Assembly: GCA_934465535.1 (NCBI GenBank)
Contig: CAKSKV010000001.1
Location: forward strand, 167,974 to 231,973
Source of the DNA: an uncultured Clostridia bacterium
Lineage (GTDB): Bacteria; Bacillota; Clostridia; Christensenellales; QALW01
Direction of reading: 5' to 3'
Length of the DNA: 64,000 bases
Below the pieces are notes generated by a model. It was not told where the DNA came from. It did no database searches and saw nothing but the letters and a program-made list of their open reading frames with translations. Both the position numbers and the translations under genes were made by a program. Shown piece by piece: positions 9,239 through 56,731 of this stretch; position 1 is the first letter of the stretch, and each line of letters opens with the position of its first letter.

Positions 9239-9991
9239 ATGAAGGACAATATACCCGCCGGGAGCGAGGATGTTAAAGAGCGGGAAAAACTGAAGGAGAC
9301 GGCTTGCACGGCAGGGGAGGCTGCATCGGATGCACGGGCCTGCACGGAGGAAAACGCCTTAGTAAACGAAAACGAAACGGAACTGTACGGCGACGAAACG
9401 AAGCCTTCGGAAGGCAATGCGGCATCAGGGGGCAGCGGCACTTTTTCCGAGGAGATAACGGGAATTGATACCTCCTTTGAGCAGAGCGTACGCAAGCCGG
9501 ATTACACGCAGGACAAAAAGCGGTATCGGCTTTACAACATAATGATGTATGTAAGCATTGCGGCGGCGGGCATGGGAGTTGTTTTCCTGCTGCTGGGCGC
9601 ATATGTTTTCGGAGCGGCGGATATTGTGTTCTGGGCGGGGCTTACGGTGCTGTTTTATCATCTTAAGGACGGCGCCGTGATTGAATACGATTATGAATTT
9701 TCCGACGGCGCACTGCGTATTGCGCGCATAAGCAACGGTGAAAAGCGCAAGGAGCTGCTTTGCGCGGAGTGCGGAAAAATTGAGAGCATTGCGCCGCTTA
9801 ATACGGAAGATATCAAACGCATGGCAGAGACGGGAGAACGCAAAATAAAGGATTATTCCCTTAATGAAGACAGCAGGAAATACTGTGTGCTGTGCAGCGT
9901 TAAAAATGAAAAGCTGGCTGTGATATGGGAACCGAAGCAGTCGCTTCTGCGCCTTATACGCCGCGAGATGCCAAGGTCGGTGACGCTATGA
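9239..9991 (+). CDS. hypothetical membrane protein (acidic N-terminus, 2 TM, Cys-containing C-terminal domain)
   Basis: ORF with TM hairpin; start at MKDN; no recognised family. Confidence 0.5.
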   Translation: MKDNIPAGSEDVKEREKLKETACTAGEAASDARACTEENALVNENETELYGDETKPSEGNAASGGSGTFSEEITGIDTSFEQSVRKPDYTQDKKRYRLYNIMMYVSIAAAGMGVVFLLLGAYVFGAADIVFWAGLTVLFYHLKDGAVIEYDYEFSDGALRIARISNGEKRKELLCAECGKIESIAPLNTEDIKRMAETGERKIKDYSLNEDSRKYCVLCSVKNEKLAVIWEPKQSLLRLIRREMPRSVTL

Positions 9992-25377: not shown

Positions 25378-27117
25378 TTATTCTTCCTTCATGGGCGGGA
25401 CAAAGTTTTCTATTGCGCTGCGCAGCTTGGGGTGACGGATAACAAAATGGATAGCCGGCGCATTGCCCTTGGAAACGATAACAAACTGCTTTTCGTGAAT
25501 GAAAATCTGAAGATTGCAAAATGCAAAGGCCGAATTTTCCTTGAGTATATAATTCGGGTGTGTGTCTGCAAAAAGTTCGGTTTGCTTGAGGTGGGCGGCG
25601 TACTCCTCAAAGCTGTATGCGATATTATTTTGCGCAAACATTCCGGACAGCTCAAGCACGGGCGGTTTTTTACTGAATTCATCTGCGGTAAGAGCGGGTA
25701 TTTCGTCCGTGACGGTGTTTTTTTCCAAAACGGATAAAATGCGCTGCCTGTAAGCGGCCGCATATTTGATTATTGCCTGCTGCTGCGCCGCATCGATGCC
25801 GCGGCGCGTGAGCATGTCGGCAAGCAGCTCCGGGCTTATTGTATACAGCGGCAGCGTGGAAAGAATGGCACGCCGTGCACCTGGCTTTTTAATATCGGAA
25901 AGCAGAAAGGTGTTGAATTCGTTTTCCCGCTCACTGCGGTAGATATCCATAAGCGGATATGCATCGGCAAGCATTTCCTGAGCGCGCCTGCGGTAATATT
26001 CCAGCTCGCGCTTTGATTTGGTAAGATAGTATCTGCCGTCGGAGTGATACCCGGCAATTGCCTCCCCGGTAAGTGCGGCGGCGCCCGAAACCTTCAGAAG
26101 GTGCAGGAAAATGCCGTTCTGCGCGTTTTTGAAATAGTATGGAGAGATTTGTCCGGTCATATACATCGGAATCCAGCTTTCAAGACCCAGCATCATTTCG
26201 TCAAAAGAGCGGTCGATATTGTGTATCTGGTACAGATGCAGCCCCTTTTTCAGCATCATGGCCATGCCGAACATCCATTTTTTTGCGAAATCCTCGTTCT
26301 TGGCCATCTCCCTCATGGGCATATCGCTGTACATTATTACAGCCTCGTCGGATTTGGAAAGCACGGTGGCCTTCAGAAAATCCAACTCGCTTTCCATCAT
26401 TTTCGATATGCCGTTGTAGGTTTTGCCGGACGGCAGCTGAAAGGGCGCGGAAGAAACTTTGAGCTCGTTGAAACGGATTATGTTTATATATTCATTAAGA
26501 TCAAATTCATCAAGGCGGTTAAGAAATTTTGATATGCTTCCGTCCGCGGTGTCATGCTCCGATTGACTGAGCAGCCAGCTTTTAATCAGGGTATACCGCG
26601 GCGAAATATCTCGGATGTCATCCGGATCACAGTCTATAAGCTCGGCCACGGCGGAAATTTCGGGCTGCGTCTGCATCTCTCTTGCAGTAAAGGCGGCAAT
26701 GGCGGAGGCGAACTGTTCGCAATCGCCGGGGTTTCTTGAGCCGCTGCGAATTCGGAAAATTGCGGAAGGGTCGTAGTTGGTATACTGACACAGGCGCGTA
26801 AGATTTATATTAAGCGCCGTAATGAGCATGTTGAAGTTTTTGCGCAAGCTCTCTCTGTCGGCGGAGATAAAATCCTCGCAGTCAATAAAGGCTTGCTTCA
26901 CGGAGGCTGCCGTTATGCCTTGTATTTCTTTTTTTGCCGCAATTTCGGCAATGGCGGAGCATAATTCCTCAAAGGCGCTGCTGTCCGATTCGGGAATACG
27001 CTCGCAGTTTCTGTATCGGCTGAGGGTGGCTTGGGAAATGCCGGAGAGCGTACATAATTCCTTGGCCGTGCAGGAGGTTTGAGAGATATATGCGTTTAGC
27101 TGCTCGTTGAATTTCAT
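25378..27117 (-). CDS. XRE-family HTH domain protein with large uncharacterised C-terminal region
   Basis: N-terminal HTH (ELCTLSGISQATLSRY); 579 aa. Confidence 0.6.
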   Translation of the reverse strand: MKFNEQLNAYISQTSCTAKELCTLSGISQATLSRYRNCERIPESDSSAFEELCSAIAEIAAKKEIQGITAASVKQAFIDCEDFISADRESLRKNFNMLITALNINLTRLCQYTNYDPSAIFRIRSGSRNPGDCEQFASAIAAFTAREMQTQPEISAVAELIDCDPDDIRDISPRYTLIKSWLLSQSEHDTADGSISKFLNRLDEFDLNEYINIIRFNELKVSSAPFQLPSGKTYNGISKMMESELDFLKATVLSKSDEAVIMYSDMPMREMAKNEDFAKKWMFGMAMMLKKGLHLYQIHNIDRSFDEMMLGLESWIPMYMTGQISPYYFKNAQNGIFLHLLKVSGAAALTGEAIAGYHSDGRYYLTKSKRELEYYRRRAQEMLADAYPLMDIYRSERENEFNTFLLSDIKKPGARRAILSTLPLYTISPELLADMLTRRGIDAAQQQAIIKYAAAYRQRILSVLEKNTVTDEIPALTADEFSKKPPVLELSGMFAQNNIAYSFEEYAAHLKQTELFADTHPNYILKENSAFAFCNLQIFIHEKQFVIVSKGNAPAIHFVIRHPKLRSAIENFVPPMKEE

Positions 27118-50901: not shown

Positions 50902-52602
50902 ATGCTTCAAAGCCTTAGCGTAAAAAACATTGCGCTTATTGACGGGATCACCGTGGAACTCTCTGACGGCTTTAATGTGATCACGGGCGAGACCGGCGCA
51001 GGAAAATCAATTCTGGTGGATTCGCTGGAGCTGCTGCTTGGCGACAGGGCGGACAAGGCGCTGGTGCGTACGGGCGCGCAGTCCGCAGAGGTTGAGGGCG
51101 TGTTTTTTGTGCGCCCGGAGGTGCGCCAAAAGGTTTTCGGGCTTCTTGATGTGCCGCCGGAGGAGGAACTGGCGGTAAGAAGAACGCTTGCGGCGGACGG
51201 ACGCAGCACCGTGCGCGTAAACGGACATGCGGTTACGCTCTCCATGCTGCGTGCAGCCATGGAGTATGTGGCGGATATATACGGTCAGCACGAAAGCACG
51301 GCGCTGCTGCATAAGGAAAATCATCTTCGTTTACTTGATGCCTATGCGCATGAAAAGCTGAAGGAACAGCTGGCAGAGTGCGCAGAGCTGTATTCGGGGT
51401 ACAGCGAAATAAAGCGCCGGCTGAGCGCCGGGTACGGAAGCCCCGAGGAAAGAGCACGCAGAATGGATATGCTGCGCTTTCAGATAGAGGAAATAGAGAC
51501 AGCCGCCATAGAGGAGGATGAAGAAGCGCAGCTGTATAAAGACAGGGAACGCTTAAGAAATGCAGAAAGAATAGCCGAAGGCATAAATGCCGCGCACGAG
51601 GCACTTAACGGTGAGGAGGACGGTGCGTGTCAGGCGCTGAGCGTTGCGGTAAAAGCCTTGCGGGAAGTGGCCGGAATGGACGAGAGTATGGCAGAGTTTG
51701 CGCAGCGTTTGCAGGATGCGCTTTACGAAGCGGAGGATATATCGCAGGAGTTGGACAATATATCGCAGTATGAGCAGGGCGAACAGAGTCTGGAAGAGCT
51801 GGAGGAGCGCATAGAGGAGCTTAAGCAGCTTAAAAGAAAGTACGGAGCCAGCCTTGCGGAGGTGGCGGAGTATGCAAAAAATGCGCGTGCCGAGCTTGAG
51901 GAGCTGGAAAATGCGGAGGATACTGTACTCAGACTGGCGTCGGATATGGATAAAACACGCACCCGCCTTTACCAATGCAGTGTCAAGCTGGACGCTATGC
52001 GCCGCGAAGCGGCAAAAGAGTTTGAAGATGCACTGTCAAAGGAGCTTAAGCTGCTGGGCATGAAAAGCGCGGTCTTTTCGGTGGAATTTGCGCCCCTGCC
52101 GCAAAAGGAGCAGGCAGTGTTCACTCCGGAGGGGATAAGCGAAGCGGAGTTTCTGTTCTCGGCAAACCTTGGAGAACCGCTTAAACCCCTGTACAGAGTT
52201 ATTTCAGGCGGTGAAATGAGCAGGTTCATGTTGGCGTTAAAGAGCATAATGGCCGATTGCGATAATATAGACACTATGGTCTTTGACGAGATAGATACCG
52301 GCATAAGCGGCCGTATGGCGCAGGTAACGGCGGAAAAGATGGCGGGAATAGCACTGGGGCATCAGGTGCTGTGCGTTACGCATCTGCCGCAGATAGCCGC
52401 GATGGCTGACAAGCACTTTTTCATATCAAAAAGCGAGCGCAACGGAAAAACCGTAACCGAACTGGAAGACTTGGACAGCGACAGACGCTGCGTCGAGATA
52501 GCGCGGCTTGCCGGAGGCGAGCTGACAAAAATCGCGCTTGCCCACGCGCAGGAAATGCTTAAAGCGGCGCAGGAGTATAAAATGCGGGCAGCAAACGGGT
52601 AA
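50902..52602 (+). CDS. recN: DNA repair protein RecN
   Basis: SMC-like with Walker A GETGAGKS and long coiled coil. Confidence 0.9.
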   Translation: MLQSLSVKNIALIDGITVELSDGFNVITGETGAGKSILVDSLELLLGDRADKALVRTGAQSAEVEGVFFVRPEVRQKVFGLLDVPPEEELAVRRTLAADGRSTVRVNGHAVTLSMLRAAMEYVADIYGQHESTALLHKENHLRLLDAYAHEKLKEQLAECAELYSGYSEIKRRLSAGYGSPEERARRMDMLRFQIEEIETAAIEEDEEAQLYKDRERLRNAERIAEGINAAHEALNGEEDGACQALSVAVKALREVAGMDESMAEFAQRLQDALYEAEDISQELDNISQYEQGEQSLEELEERIEELKQLKRKYGASLAEVAEYAKNARAELEELENAEDTVLRLASDMDKTRTRLYQCSVKLDAMRREAAKEFEDALSKELKLLGMKSAVFSVEFAPLPQKEQAVFTPEGISEAEFLFSANLGEPLKPLYRVISGGEMSRFMLALKSIMADCDNIDTMVFDEIDTGISGRMAQVTAEKMAGIALGHQVLCVTHLPQIAAMADKHFFISKSERNGKTVTELEDLDSDRRCVEIARLAGGELTKIALAHAQEMLKAAQEYKMRAANG

Positions 52603-52618
52603 TATTTAAGATAATAAA

Positions 52619-55468
52619 TTATATCGCGGCCGGGGCATTGCCCCGGCCTTTTGTGCGCCGGCAAATGCCGTGTTGTTCCTGTATTTCGACTGTATTGTTC
52701 AGCTCGTGTATTGCCGCCTGATACGAGCGCAGGGATTTCGTCTCCTGCTCATTCTGCGCTATCTGCATGAAGAGGTTGGAAAGCTCCTTGCGCGGGTTGA
52801 ACTGGTTCTCATCGCTGCGCAGCTCAAGGTGAATGTCCGGCGAAGATGTCGGGGTTTTGTTATCAAAGCTCTTGAACTGATCGCTGCCGAAGGCCACATA
52901 CACATTGGCGTTGTCGTATTTGCCCTCTACAATGTAACCGTCATAGCCCAGCACCTTGCGCACGGCATCCATAACATTTCCGCTGCCTGCGCCCGCATTG
53001 GCTATCTCCGCCAATATCTCGCTGTCGCTTTCGCTGGTGCTCATAATCATGTTTACGGTATCGGAAAGCGCCCTGTTATACCACGCTTTGGAGGGGTAGC
53101 CCATACCGCCCTGCGAATCGTAATTCAGTATTACATCGTCGCCGGTGGGGTCTAATGCCTTAAGCAGCCGTTTTACCTCCGGCGCGGAAAGCGTTACCTC
53201 GCTGTCGCTCAGCGGATTTGTAATGTTCAGATAGCCTTCAAGCAGCTGTCCGCCCTTTTTCTGATAGCCCTCCGCCATGTCCTTGTAGTCCGTGAAATAA
53301 AAGCCCTGTCCCTCGGAGCTGCCGTGCTGGCTCATGAAGTCGGCGGAGAACACATTGAATACGGCAGAGCTGCCGTGGTATACGGTTTTCAGCCGTCCGT
53401 CCTTGTCCCGCACCTGACTGTCCTTGAATTTCTCCGCCTGCGCCTTCGTCAGCTCTCTGCCCTGATTGTCCCGCAGCTCGTACAGTATATCCCGGTTGCC
53501 TTTGTCGAATGTGCCTATGTTGTCCGTCGCGGACTTGAGCTGCGTGGGGTCAAAGGCTACCCATTCAATACCGTCATGTATGCCGTCATAGCCGAGGTGC
53601 TTAAGAATATCGCTTGTCTTGATTCCGTTGTCGGCGGCATATTCGGACAGGTAATCCATAACGCGCGTCGGGGTCATCAGCTTTTGCTGCGCATGCTTTC
53701 GGTATACGCCGTCGTATGCGTCAAGGTTATGCTTAGTGGCAGCGTAAGTATTCAGCACTTCATCGGCCTGCGCTTTGGTCAATTTCATTTCAAACGGGTG
53801 CTTTATGTCCGCATAGACATCCATTCTGTTCTTGCCGTAGTCCATAAAGGCGGTCTTGCTGGAGGATATGTATATACCGTCGCCGAGCCGCATTCCCTGA
53901 TTGCTTCCGCTGCGTGCGGGGTCAAAAACAGTAAAGGTGCTGTCGGTGTAGTGGTACATCACTCGCGGCGTACCGTCGGCGTTTACCACCTTGCTTGCAC
54001 GCTTGGGATTCTTCTGCCAGTCACCGAACCAGCGCTTGAATTGCTGCGTTTGCGTAACATTTTCAAATTTTGTGTTGACAAACGAACCGGCATCGCGTAT
54101 ACTGTGAATGTAGCCATCGGTTACTGTCTTTCCACCGGGGAATTGTACCCCGGATGCATTGAACAGAGCGGTGGCGCTTTTTTTATTCAAGTAGAACAGG
54201 CGAACAGCGGTGTCGGAATCGTTAGTTATCGCGTCTGCCAAGAGTTTTGCTGCATTGGCGCGCGTATGTATGGAGGTTATGGCGTTACTGTCTATGCGCT
54301 CTCCATTCATGATGCCGTAACCCTCAATTTCAACAGCAGCAAACATAGGCTTGTTTCCGAATGACAAGTCCAATATTGCCACAATGCTGGACTGCGGCTT
54401 GGTGTTTGAAGCAATTATTGCGACAGGATTTTTCATTGCTTCTGGGATACGCTTCAGATTTGCCTCGCCGAAGTTATGATCCACTTTATTCCCCTGCAGG
54501 ACATCTTTAAGGTGCCCGGTCGCATAAGTCATGGGCAGTGCGTTCAGCCCTATTTTTTGGAACACTTCCGGTGTTGCGCCGACAATGAGTGTGTCGTATT
54601 TAGGGAATTTTCCGGCCTTGTAGTCGTCTATCTGCTGTGCAAAGGTTTTGGAATAGTCGTAGGAACGGATTTCCGACATGGTATCTTTTCCCGCGCTCTT
54701 CCTGCCTTCGTTCTCCTTTATCGCCCCCTTAAGCGCATTGTCCCACAGCTTCTGCGTTTCCTTAAGGCTGGTTTCGCTTGCCGCTATGGCGCGGGCTTCG
54801 GGGCTGGTGGCGTCAAGGTTTTCAAAGGCGGCCTTTCTGTTGGCGGAAAGCTTTTTAATAAAGCCGTCAAGCCCCGCCTTTATGCGCTGCGCAAGAGACA
54901 GGTTCTGCCGCGCCAGTTTTTCAAACACTTCACTGTTTTTCAGCATCATTTCACAGGCGGCTGCCACCATTTCTTCCTTTGCCTGTTCGCGGGTAAGCTC
55001 CTTGCCCACCTGATCTTTGTACTGCTCCTGTATGTCCTCTATGCGGTTATCTACGCTCTTTTCGCCGTACTGCTCCGTAAACCGGGACAGAACATAATCC
55101 TCAAGCAGGGAATAGGTCTGCGTGCCGGAGGCGGCTATATAGTGCGTTATTTCATGCGACGCCGTTTTCAGTATTGCACTGCCGGTTATGTCGGTAATGC
55201 TCTGCATGCCGGCATTGACGGAAACATACAGGGTATTGGTTACACCGTCGTAATGCCCGTTTTCCACTGCAAACGCGCCTGTTACATCCACGCCCGACAT
55301 AAGGGTTATGTTTATGCCGGAAACCTCGCTGACGGCCTTCAGATAGCTTACCGCGGCGGTCTGCTTGGTGGTGAGTAGAACGGATCCGGCATTGTCAAAA
55401 GCATAAGCAAGACCGGAATATATTTGAAAAATGCGTGAAACGGCATCGGAAATTTCGGCATTAAACAA
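52619..55468 (-). CDS. large orphan protein: HExxH zincin-like region plus two tandem ADP-ribosyltransferase-like modules (resembles phage/ICE polyvalent proteins)
   Basis: SHEITHY; two repeats of YH[YG]xxxxFxVF...G[IF]Y[IF][ST] with H-G-S in the second. Confidence 0.5.
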   Translation of the reverse strand: MFNAEISDAVSRIFQIYSGLAYAFDNAGSVLLTTKQTAAVSYLKAVSEVSGINITLMSGVDVTGAFAVENGHYDGVTNTLYVSVNAGMQSITDITGSAILKTASHEITHYIAASGTQTYSLLEDYVLSRFTEQYGEKSVDNRIEDIQEQYKDQVGKELTREQAKEEMVAAACEMMLKNSEVFEKLARQNLSLAQRIKAGLDGFIKKLSANRKAAFENLDATSPEARAIAASETSLKETQKLWDNALKGAIKENEGRKSAGKDTMSEIRSYDYSKTFAQQIDDYKAGKFPKYDTLIVGATPEVFQKIGLNALPMTYATGHLKDVLQGNKVDHNFGEANLKRIPEAMKNPVAIIASNTKPQSSIVAILDLSFGNKPMFAAVEIEGYGIMNGERIDSNAITSIHTRANAAKLLADAITNDSDTAVRLFYLNKKSATALFNASGVQFPGGKTVTDGYIHSIRDAGSFVNTKFENVTQTQQFKRWFGDWQKNPKRASKVVNADGTPRVMYHYTDSTFTVFDPARSGSNQGMRLGDGIYISSSKTAFMDYGKNRMDVYADIKHPFEMKLTKAQADEVLNTYAATKHNLDAYDGVYRKHAQQKLMTPTRVMDYLSEYAADNGIKTSDILKHLGYDGIHDGIEWVAFDPTQLKSATDNIGTFDKGNRDILYELRDNQGRELTKAQAEKFKDSQVRDKDGRLKTVYHGSSAVFNVFSADFMSQHGSSEGQGFYFTDYKDMAEGYQKKGGQLLEGYLNITNPLSDSEVTLSAPEVKRLLKALDPTGDDVILNYDSQGGMGYPSKAWYNRALSDTVNMIMSTSESDSEILAEIANAGAGSGNVMDAVRKVLGYDGYIVEGKYDNANVYVAFGSDQFKSFDNKTPTSSPDIHLELRSDENQFNPRKELSNLFMQIAQNEQETKSLRSYQAAIHELNNTVEIQEQHGICRRTKGRGNAPAAI
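52628..52653 (+). terminator. rho-independent terminator after recN (GGCCGGGG-cattg-CCCCGGCC-TTTTG), possibly bidirectional
   Basis: 8-bp GC stem plus T-run. Confidence 0.7.
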
Positions 55469-55537: not shown

Positions 55538-55566
55538 TTGACAAAAACAATTAACGGATATATACT
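55538..55566 (+). promoter_or_regulatory. sigma-A promoter of hrcA operon (TTGACA-17-TATACT)
   Basis: consensus -35 and near-consensus -10 immediately upstream of CIRCE. Confidence 0.6.
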
Positions 55567-55575
55567 TTCCTCAAG

Positions 55576-55602
55576 TTAGCACTCAAGAGGTGCGAGTGCT
55601 AA
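55576..55602 (+). promoter_or_regulatory. CIRCE operator (TTAGCACTC-N9-GAGTGCTAA), HrcA binding site
   Basis: perfect match to CIRCE consensus. Confidence 0.9.
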
Positions 55603-55654
55603 CGAAGTTTGAATGTTACATACAAACAAAGGCGAAGAAGGGAGCGGCGCGAAT

Positions 55655-56731
55655 ATGGAACTTTCGGAGCGTAAAAAGAAAATCCTTAAGACCATAATCG
55701 ACGACTATATCTCTACGGCAATGCCGGTGGGTTCAAAGACAATAGCCGAGCATATGGGCATGAGCATAAGCTCTGCAACGGTGCGCAACGAGATGAACGA
55801 GCTGGAAAGCATGGGCTATCTTGATCAGCCGCATACTTCGGCGGGCAGGATACCTTCGGACAAGGCGTTCAGAATGTATGTGGACAGCCTGCTTGAAATG
55901 ACACAGCTTACCGCACCGGAGATAAGCTTTGCAAGTGATTATTATGACGAACGGATGGTGCAGACGGAAGCGGTGCTCAAGGCGGCGGCTTCGGCCATAA
56001 GCGAAGCTACGGATTATGTATCCGTGGTTATGGCGCCAAGGCTCAGTTCGGTTACAATAAGGCATTTGCAGCTGGTGCCGATAAGCGACAATTCGGCACT
56101 TGCGGTGCTGGTAACGGATGCCGGCGTAATCAGAGATACGCCCATCGCCTTCAACACCGCAGTTACGCCGGAACAGCTTGAAGATGTAAGCAAGGCGCTC
56201 AACAATATATTTGCAGGGCGCAGGCTGACATCGGAGGATCTGAACATTCATTCCGAGATAATGCAGGAGCTTCAGGGTCAGCGCGAGGTGTTCTCACAGG
56301 TAACGGATATACTCCGCAGCCATTTGCTCACCTCGGACACCGCTTTTACGGTGGGAGGCACGGCAAAGCTGCTGAGCCATCCCGAATACAGCGATGTTGA
56401 GCGTGCCCGGGATATGCTCCAGCTGCTGGACTCCGGCAGCGAGATAGGCTCTGTGCTGAAGGAATCCGACGGCGTGGAAATGAAGGTTTCCATAGGCAGT
56501 GAAAACCGCAGCAGCCGCCTTAAGGATTGCGCGGTAGTGACCGCGAGCTACAAGATAGGCGACAGAAACGCCGGAACAATCGGCGTTATAGGGCCGGTGC
56601 GCATGCAGTATGATAAGGTAATCAAGGTGCTCTCATATATGAAGCAGTCCCTTTCGGAGGTTCTGGGAAGCTCCGGAAAGCTTATTGAAGAGGGCGGTAA
56701 GGAGAAGGAAAATGAAGAAGGAAAAAACTGA
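55655..56731 (+). CDS. hrcA: heat-inducible transcription repressor HrcA
   Basis: HrcA family; start at MELSERKKKIL. Confidence 0.9.
   Translation: MELSERKKKILKTIIDDYISTAMPVGSKTIAEHMGMSISSATVRNEMNELESMGYLDQPHTSAGRIPSDKAFRMYVDSLLEMTQLTAPEISFASDYYDERMVQTEAVLKAAASAISEATDYVSVVMAPRLSSVTIRHLQLVPISDNSALAVLVTDAGVIRDTPIAFNTAVTPEQLEDVSKALNNIFAGRRLTSEDLNIHSEIMQELQGQREVFSQVTDILRSHLLTSDTAFTVGGTAKLLSHPEYSDVERARDMLQLLDSGSEIGSVLKESDGVEMKVSIGSENRSSRLKDCAVVTASYKIGDRNAGTIGVIGPVRMQYDKVIKVLSYMKQSLSEVLGSSGKLIEEGGKEKENEEGKN

Follow-up and report, generated by a model that had tools for sequence, protein, structure and literature searches.

The window analysed here, a stretch of 64,000 nucleotides from an uncultured Clostridia bacterium (contig CAKSKV010000001.1), contains between recN and hrcA a minus-strand open reading frame (ORF) of 949 codons with a TTG start (52619-55468), and an open frame of this length at 52% G+C is far beyond chance. 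Sequence comparison identifies this ORF as the middle part, about 30%, of a polyvalent-protein gene of a temperate phage, cut at both ends. It is probably a chromosomal relic, an internal piece of the phage gene that is not expressed and has been kept readable by recombination with related copies. As listed from TTG to stop, the ORF is a composite of a phage-derived core and read-through into the chromosomal flanks at both ends. The original prediction had described a whole orphan gene, either a stranded effector/toxin module or the remnant of an integrated element; the description as a whole gene has to be given up, as only 52692-55375 is homologous to the 2,978-amino-acid (aa) phage gene of which it is an internal fragment.

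The parent gene and the recN-hrcA site

The phage-derived core (52692..55375, minus strand) aligns over 2,684 bp, without a gap and at 95.9% identity, with positions 15363-12680 of a 41-kb phage contig (L019), where it covers about codons 894-1788 of the gene for a 2,978-aa protein, P0150. At the protein level ORF residues 32-934 correspond to P0150 residues 894-1801 at 96.9% identity. P0150 was found by a remote-homology search with the HExxH domain of the ORF and has the same module order (HExxH domain at 894-1132, MuF_C at 1188-1293, then two ADP-ribosyltransferases, ARTs); the first ~890 and the last ~1,190 codons of the gene are absent from the fragment. The phage contig encodes a P22/SU10-type portal, a Prp protease, the capsid, further structural proteins and a peptidoglycan-binding protein, after which follow the giant gene, holin, NlpC/P60 endolysin, Bro-N/ANT, tyrosine integrase and helix-turn-helix repressors, so that the giant gene is the last of the structural block and directly precedes the holin/endolysin genes. 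The same arrangement is found in L017 and in a more distant prophage (L018), and a similar one in the IMG/VR contig L011, where this sequence lies within an ORF of 2,854 aa. Polyvalent proteins are encoded by phages or conjugative elements among virion/late or transfer genes, as is the parent gene in all four of these phage sequences, whereas the window copy is not: no phage or conjugation genes lie beside it between recN and hrcA, as had been noted from the start. The C-terminal third of the giant protein matches phrog_22978 (E = 1e-175), and PHROGs returned only giant families without known function, phrog_21376 and phrog_22978. Among deposited phages and plasmids there was no close relative of the gene, only ART-module matches at about 30%. 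Directly upstream of the giant gene L011 carries a large serine recombinase (1-1782) and L019 has a tyrosine integrase (25783-26835); different integrases in closely related phages suggest that module exchange occurs at the lysogeny region too.

The closest proteins to the ORF (97% identity) are 1,192-1,206 aa long and align to ORF residues 32-929 only, and the DNA homology to their genes runs exactly from 52692 to 55375. These proteins of about 1,200 aa, which begin with MQAKSGS, were considered as the full-length gene and rejected, because they are fragments themselves (L019 12477-15981), devoid of a Shine-Dalgarno (SD) motif or a promoter-like site.

The history of the insertion could be read from its junctions. 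The 5′ and 3′ junctions are base-identical in L015 and L016, which belong to the window's species (flank synonymous divergence, dS, of 0.057), and in L010 (flank dS 0.20), and their identity in window, L015 and L010 despite this divergence argues for one ancient insertion. Among species-representative genomes scanned with RecN, the complete chromosome CP091722.1 (L007, an Oscillospiraceae metagenome-assembled genome) has flanks ~93% identical to those of the window. In L007 recN and hrcA are adjacent, with a relic of ~160 bp at 9797-9960, in which about 50 bp left of the phage gene (…AAGCAGA-TGCCGCCGTAAGCTATTTGAAGGCCGTCAGTGAGATTTCCGG…) adjoin the shared 5′ spacer; this points to descent from an insert-bearing ancestor and a later deletion of ~2.65 kb. 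On the evidence of these junctions the fragment entered the recN-hrcA spacer once, in the ancestor of at least four sampled lineages, and, given its deletion in L007, it is dispensable. The synteny comparison recommended by the original prediction thus reveals a gene that is not universal at this position, and the accompanying remark on spoIVB-spo0A has no relevance here, since the nearest relative has hrcA immediately after recN.

Concerning only the origin of the fragment, two routes may be envisaged: a complete prophage may once have lain between recN and hrcA and decayed in place, or illegitimate recombination or repair may have captured a stray fragment. In favour of decay, prophages commonly degenerate by deletion, the integrases of L019 and L011 show the parent phage to be temperate, and L007 exhibits a further deletion at the recN-hrcA site. 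Decay in place would, however, have left neither att-like direct repeats nor any other phage gene or fragment: around the insert there are no credible repeats, only short ones of chance level, and in the window region no phage genes or fragments border it. Moreover, both breakpoints interrupt a single gene; in L019 they lie 9-13 kb away from the integrase and distant from the prophage ends. Two independent decays of whole prophages would hardly be expected to leave nested fragments of the same gene at two loci (for the second fragment see below). We therefore consider in-place decay doubtful, although it keeps a fair claim to attention beside capture. The alternative favoured in the original prediction's own terms is the remnant of an integrated element, with the reservation that integration of a whole element at this site is not shown, because neither att-like repeats nor other phage genes were found there.

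Ends, expression signals and interior of the fragment

Both ends of the ORF are chromosomal DNA. The head, codons 1-31 (55376..55468, minus strand), is not homologous to the phage gene; it behaves as a non-coding spacer. Its 5′ junction is common to the window, L015, L010 and L007, and alignment of the spacer from four genomes revealed 1-nt and 10-nt indels that alter the frame, so that the ORF of each lineage begins at a different, unrelated codon. The tail, codons 927-949 (…VEIQEQHGICRRTKGRGNAPAAI; 52622..52690, minus strand), likewise has no phage-gene homology and represents read-through of the recN terminator; its 3′ junction is identical in the window, L015 and L010. The intrinsic terminator of recN, a hairpin GGCCGGGGC-ATT-GCCCCGGCC followed by TTTTGT (52628..52648, plus strand), is situated inside the 3′ end of the ORF and has been kept in L007, which lacks the fragment. 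Directly upstream of the ORF, and serving the other strand, are the hrcA promoter TTGACA-17-TATACT (55538-55566, plus strand) and the CIRCE operator TTAGCACTC-N9-GAGTGCTAA (55576-55602, plus strand).

Neither the TTG nor any other in-frame start within the first 150 codons has an SD-like motif before it; the same check detected SD motifs before recN, dnaK, grpE, dnaJ and hrcA. The promoter scan detected no minus-strand promoter-like site for the ORF, and no start codon is conserved among the lineages, so that a promoter of its own, a ribosome-binding site and a conserved start, by which a functional gene would be recognized, were not detected. The fragment most likely yields no regular product, and the proposal of a stranded effector or toxin acting as an expressed protein finds no support in these signals. 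For annotation this means that no 949-aa protein should be entered for the ORF, which is a pseudogene-like fragment with a terminator and a promoter region for ends.

The interior of the fragment has a different history from its ends. The window allele (949 aa) contains MuF_C, ART1 and ART2, and the alleles of L015 (1,225 aa) and L010 (1,058 aa) both contain LPD3-type modules and a different first ART; a further allele, P0054, encodes 1,214 aa. The comparison covers the four or five alleles available at this site, as a metagenome scan recovered CRISPR-adjacent and phage copies and no further recN-hrcA allele. Conserved segments, the HExxH domain and ART2, lie on either side of the variable interior. 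Between the window and L015, members of the same species, the shared segments have dS values of 0.13 and 0.07, compared with 0.057 for the flanks overall, and are more diverged than these; between the window and L010 segment B is less diverged (dS 0.09) than the flanks (0.20). The ratio of non-synonymous to synonymous divergence (dN/dS) is 0.02-0.11 in every comparison, phage-borne copies included. The simplest reading of these alignments is homologous replacement of the interior via the conserved HExxH-domain and ART2 segments, which would explain the intact frame without selection on a local product. The reading frame is intact and dN/dS is low, but in-place selection is not demonstrated, because the values hold equally against the phage copies and the interior has been swapped.

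The course of events may then be envisaged as follows. The source is the giant gene, of about 3,000 codons, for a polyvalent protein of a P22/SU10-portal-type temperate phage infecting this Oscillospiraceae lineage, and the reading frame of the piece simply continues past its borders, into the hrcA promoter region on one side and into the recN terminator on the other. Recombination through the HExxH-domain and ART2 segments would repeatedly overwrite the interior with sequence that had been selected in the phage, and the low dN/dS would be caused by gene conversion. The likely partners would be phages, either infecting the cell or resident in it, and possibly another fragment in the chromosome. 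Exchange of sequence between defective prophages and temperate phages by homologous recombination has been described (De Paepe et al. 2014, PLoS Genet, PMC3945230).

Several points weigh against an unexpressed relic. An open frame of 949-1,225 codons is found in every allele seen at the site, in lineages separated by flank dS of up to 0.2, and such persistence is also expected from selection on an expressed product. The promoter and SD scans were consensus-based, and a near-consensus minus-strand pair TTGTCA-17-TTTAAT, outside the scanner rules, was seen by eye in the AT-rich upstream DNA; weak minus-strand transcription may start from it, and leaderless or internal initiation of the ORF may occur.

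These points would fit a domesticated and expressed host gene, in which a truncated protein with peptidase, PBECR domain and two ARTs, made from an unrecognised promoter and start, serves the bacterium, for instance as a toxin/effector or anti-phage factor. Besides the intact ORF in all alleles, the dN/dS values and the persistence of the insertion, such a gene would account for the retention of all catalytic residues (HExxH, and H-Y-D in both ARTs). We nevertheless find it improbable. It would be a gene in which neither a promoter-like site nor an SD motif nor a conserved start was found, whose N- and C-terminal extensions are made of flanking DNA and differ by frameshift between lineages, and which L007 has deleted. 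NCBIfam and PADLOC gave no match to the ORF, to the 1,206-aa copy or to the giant protein, and the ORF has no signal peptide (in line with the original prediction), partner gene or immunity gene. The low dN/dS observed equally against phage copies, together with the wholesale swaps of the interior, explains the open frame without in-place selection.

The nested fragment beside a type I-C CRISPR array

The copies beginning with MQAKSGS, which occur in related genomes, all occupy one position, in the order cas3-cas5-cas8c-cas7-cas4-cas1-cas2, CRISPR array, fragment, UDG gene. The fragment begins 200 bp past the last repeat (199 bp in L014), in the same sense as the array, and is followed by the convergent UDG gene (L004 9801-13579; L005 9526-13346; also L006, L012-L014, L020-L024, L026-L028, L030 and L031). 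It corresponds to L019 12477-15981 and contains the window's segment nested within it. More than 100 distinct length and module variants (1,004-1,653 aa) share identical ends, nearly all of them being intact ORFs, and neither a promoter-like site nor an SD motif was found before the CRISPR-adjacent copy. Two interrupted copies, one in L033 (5800-9500) with about seven frame changes, where the cas genes look frameshifted as well, and one in L027 (2186-5224; coverage 4x) with a single frame change, could reflect decay or assembly error, which are indistinguishable here, and both were excluded from the evidence.

Spacers of these arrays match the intact phage (L019, L017) at 34/34, 35/35, 30/30, 31/33 and 32/34 (L004 9055-9088; L014 7483-7515, 8642-8674, 8709-8743 and 9460-9493). 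Their targets are in the portal, capsid, structural and integrase-side regions of the phage, and none of the matches found falls within the chromosomally retained gene segment, as expected if self-targeting is avoided. The tetranucleotide correlation (r) with the window is 0.98 for the flanks of the CRISPR locus, 0.99 for the L007 flanks and 0.3-0.4 for unrelated Firmicutes, a signature which is suggestive of a similar kind of genome for the CRISPR-adjacent locus and is no proof of the same genome.

The presence of two fragments of one gene raises the question of whether they serve as selected recombination substrates. In one version the fragment would be a module archive, swapping modules either with the gene in the phage or with the longer copy beside the CRISPR array, in the manner of orphan cdiA-CT/rhs-CT cassettes or pilS; in the other it would be a host-side trap, where a single crossover integrates the incoming phage and thereby splits its giant gene into two truncated copies. 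Conserved segments around a variable interior provide the geometry for cassette exchange, the alleles combine identical junctions with different interiors, the nested fragment lies 200 bp past an array whose spacers match the same phage at 34/34 and 35/35, and its more than 100 variants are nearly all intact. Against this, any relic with homology is expected to exchange sequence passively (De Paepe et al. 2014, PMC3945230), the fragment has been lost in L007, and there is neither an immunity gene nor an adjoining expressed master copy as in the CDI/Rhs orphans. Selection of the window fragment as such a substrate seems to us quite unlikely. The broader idea that both end-less fragments are kept as recombination-active elements of the phage-host conflict, as an archive of effector modules or as a trap or decoy against an essential virion gene, has a slim prospect of being right. 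If the fragments, above all the CRISPR-adjacent one, are selected, and there is a small chance that they are such players in the conflict, this would amount to a host-phage interaction of a new kind.

That phage reads were misjoined into a chromosomal contig may be dismissed as practically impossible, in spite of the metagenomic source and the 96% identity between phage and fragment, because independent assemblies, made in different studies and with different assemblers, agree in every base of the junctions (L001, L002, L003, L015, L016, L010; contigs of up to 313 kb) and a junction relic persists in a complete chromosome (CP091722.1). The locus is no artefact, as it is 100% identical across three independent human-gut assemblies.

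A relic of a phage gene is in itself an ordinary kind of object; it is the population pattern that is unusual, with fixed junctions, swapped interiors and a twin fragment by a phage-targeting CRISPR array. A phage-gene relic with fixed junctions and a repeatedly rewritten interior makes module exchange between phage and chromosome measurable from metagenomes in uncultured gut Oscillospiraceae.

The ORF is flanked by dxs-nadK-argR-recN and, beyond its opposite end, by hrcA-grpE-dnaK-dnaJ. The coordinates confirm the predicted position between recN (50902-52602, plus strand), with which the ORF is convergent, and hrcA, which is divergent from it. The hrcA ORF as listed (372 aa) is probably over-extended at 55613-55654: the ATG at 55613 has no SD motif, and the ATG at 55655, with GGAG 10 nt upstream, yields the 358-aa HrcA called by public assemblies. 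Inside the fragment, antisense to it, there is a sigma-70-like site TTGACA-17-TATACT (54075-54103, plus strand; 11/12 positions) with the same hexamers as the hrcA promoter. It is kept in the CRISPR-adjacent copy (L005 11206-11178); possibly the phage gene contains an antisense promoter here, or the match arose by chance.

Protein modules and known systems

The Pfam profile ART-PolyVal (PF18760; threshold 31.2 bits) matches the ORF twice over its whole length, at residues 497-654 (E = 1.7e-18, 68 bits) and 688-874 (E = 2.9e-24, 87 bits), and MuF_C (PF18819; threshold 27.6 bits) matches residues 326-431 (E = 5e-15, 56 bits, profile positions 5-100 of 103). With no unrelated family among the Pfam matches, the two tandem ART-like modules and the assignment to MuF-associated polyvalent proteins, both predicted at the outset, are upheld. 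MuF_C (54176..54493, minus strand) belongs to the PBECR class of RNase-fold domains (Iyer et al. 2017, PMC5512222); the MuF-C of phage Mu itself has been described as inactive. The first ART module (53507..53980, minus strand) has its motifs YHYTD at 505 and GIYIS at 531, and the second (52847..53407, minus strand) has YHGSS at 697 and GFYFT at 722. The site residues are H506, Y533 and D628 in the former and H698, Y724 and D843 in the latter, the third residue being part of GYDG in both, and H, Y and D are invariant in a small alignment of related modules. Both modules, as judged from these alignments, carry the H-Y-D active-site configuration of polyvalent-protein ARTs. Within the wider H-Y-[EDQ] assemblage, it is the H-Y-D site that defines the polyvalent-protein ART (Iyer et al. 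2017, PMC5512222). The earlier assignment to the H-Y-E clade was therefore right as to the polyvalent type of ART and has to be refined from H-Y-E to H-Y-D.

The HExxH domain, a zincin-like putative metallopeptidase (residues 32-270; 54659..55375, minus strand), belongs to no Pfam family. Its predicted SHEITHY motif (residues 104-110) proved to be a real and invariant feature of a widespread domain: H105, E106 and H109 of the H105-E106-I-T-H109 motif (55142..55156, minus strand) are conserved in 100% of 135 remote homologs at 26-40% identity. Two glutamates of the downstream helix, E166 (99%) and E173 (93%), are nearly as constant, so that residues 105-173 display the HEXXH motif and the Glu in a following conserved helix by which zincin metallopeptidases are recognized. 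A Pfam search with residues 1-270, MPTase-PolyVal included, found no peptidase family up to E = 1; a sequence profile search of the PDB gave a low-complexity artefact against a designed repeat protein and nothing else, Foldseek against the PDB gave no significant match, and a literature search under the Pfam family names returned noise only. Among 1,796 representative homologs of the domain nearly all have it internal to proteins of 2,300-4,500 aa. These giants (P0150-P0293) form a very large unannotated family, and most of those scanned are without any Pfam domain (none in P0152 and P0155).

A short motif, x-E-[LI]-R followed by D, S or G, recurs at module borders throughout the family (…GSMSEIRSY…, …PDIRYELRDNQG…, …SPDIHLELRSDEN…). 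In the ORF it is represented by three linkers on the minus strand, SEIRSY (residues 265-270; 54659..54676), YELRDN (663-668; 53465-53482) and LELRSD (881-886; 52811-52828), in the contexts …MSEIRS…, …DIRYELRD… and …HLELRSDEN…, with recombination breakpoints nearby. The linker could be a cleavage site of the HExxH peptidase, a recombination hotspot, or both. The parent protein would be a carrier of several effectors: a peptidase of the zincin-like HExxH type, H-Y-D ADP-ribosyltransferases, and modules of the PBECR/MuF_C or LPD3 kind. By analogy with other polyvalent proteins it would be packaged in the virion and delivered with the DNA, and its peptidase may cut the chain at the x-E-[LI]-R linkers. 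The fragment in this way points to an uncharacterised virion-associated family of ~3,000 aa with an invariant HExxH and shuffled ART, PBECR and LPD modules joined by such linkers.

For the probable role of the parent protein the models are Alt of phage T4 and Dar/DdrB of phage P1, which are packaged in the capsid, injected with the DNA, act on host targets by ADP-ribosylation and are possibly processed by their own peptidase (summarised in PMC5512222). Alt is an R-S-E ART and the modules described here are of the H-Y-D type. With the phage polyvalent proteins at large (Iyer, Burroughs, Anand, de Souza, Aravind 2017, J Bacteriol, PMC5512222) the parent shares several unrelated effector domains per polypeptide (zincin-like HExxH, PBECR-type MuF_C, LPD3 and H-Y-D ARTs in more than one copy) and a position among the late/virion genes of a phage or prophage. 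Polyvalent architectures also vary widely between orthologs, as exemplified by Helicobacter jhp1044 (PMC5512222), and likewise here. The window copy differs from them in being the middle ~30% only, placed in housekeeping DNA and without detectable expression signals; the HExxH domain misses the Pfam MPTase-PolyVal model, and the N- and C-terminal parts of the parent (phrog_22978) are without assigned function.

Orphan cdiA-CT/cdiI and rhs-CT cassettes and silent pilS are truncated copies that lack the 5′ part and the initiation signals and are homologous to full copies around a variable part, and the module borders of polymorphic toxins are marked by VENN or PxxxxDPxGL. The fragment resembles them in its truncation, its flanking homology and its short border motif, here x-E-[LI]-R. 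Unlike them it has no adjacent master gene and no immunity gene, its variable part is central instead of C-terminal, and the full copy is phage-borne. A further likeness to the relic proposed here is offered by defective-prophage DNA, where a chromosomal remnant shares homology with active phages and exchange leads to mosaicism (De Paepe et al. 2014, PMC3945230). The window differs from that case in having a single internal gene fragment in place of a multi-gene cryptic prophage, with the exchange deduced from population data, and mosaicism appears here as identical junctions combined with swapped interiors.

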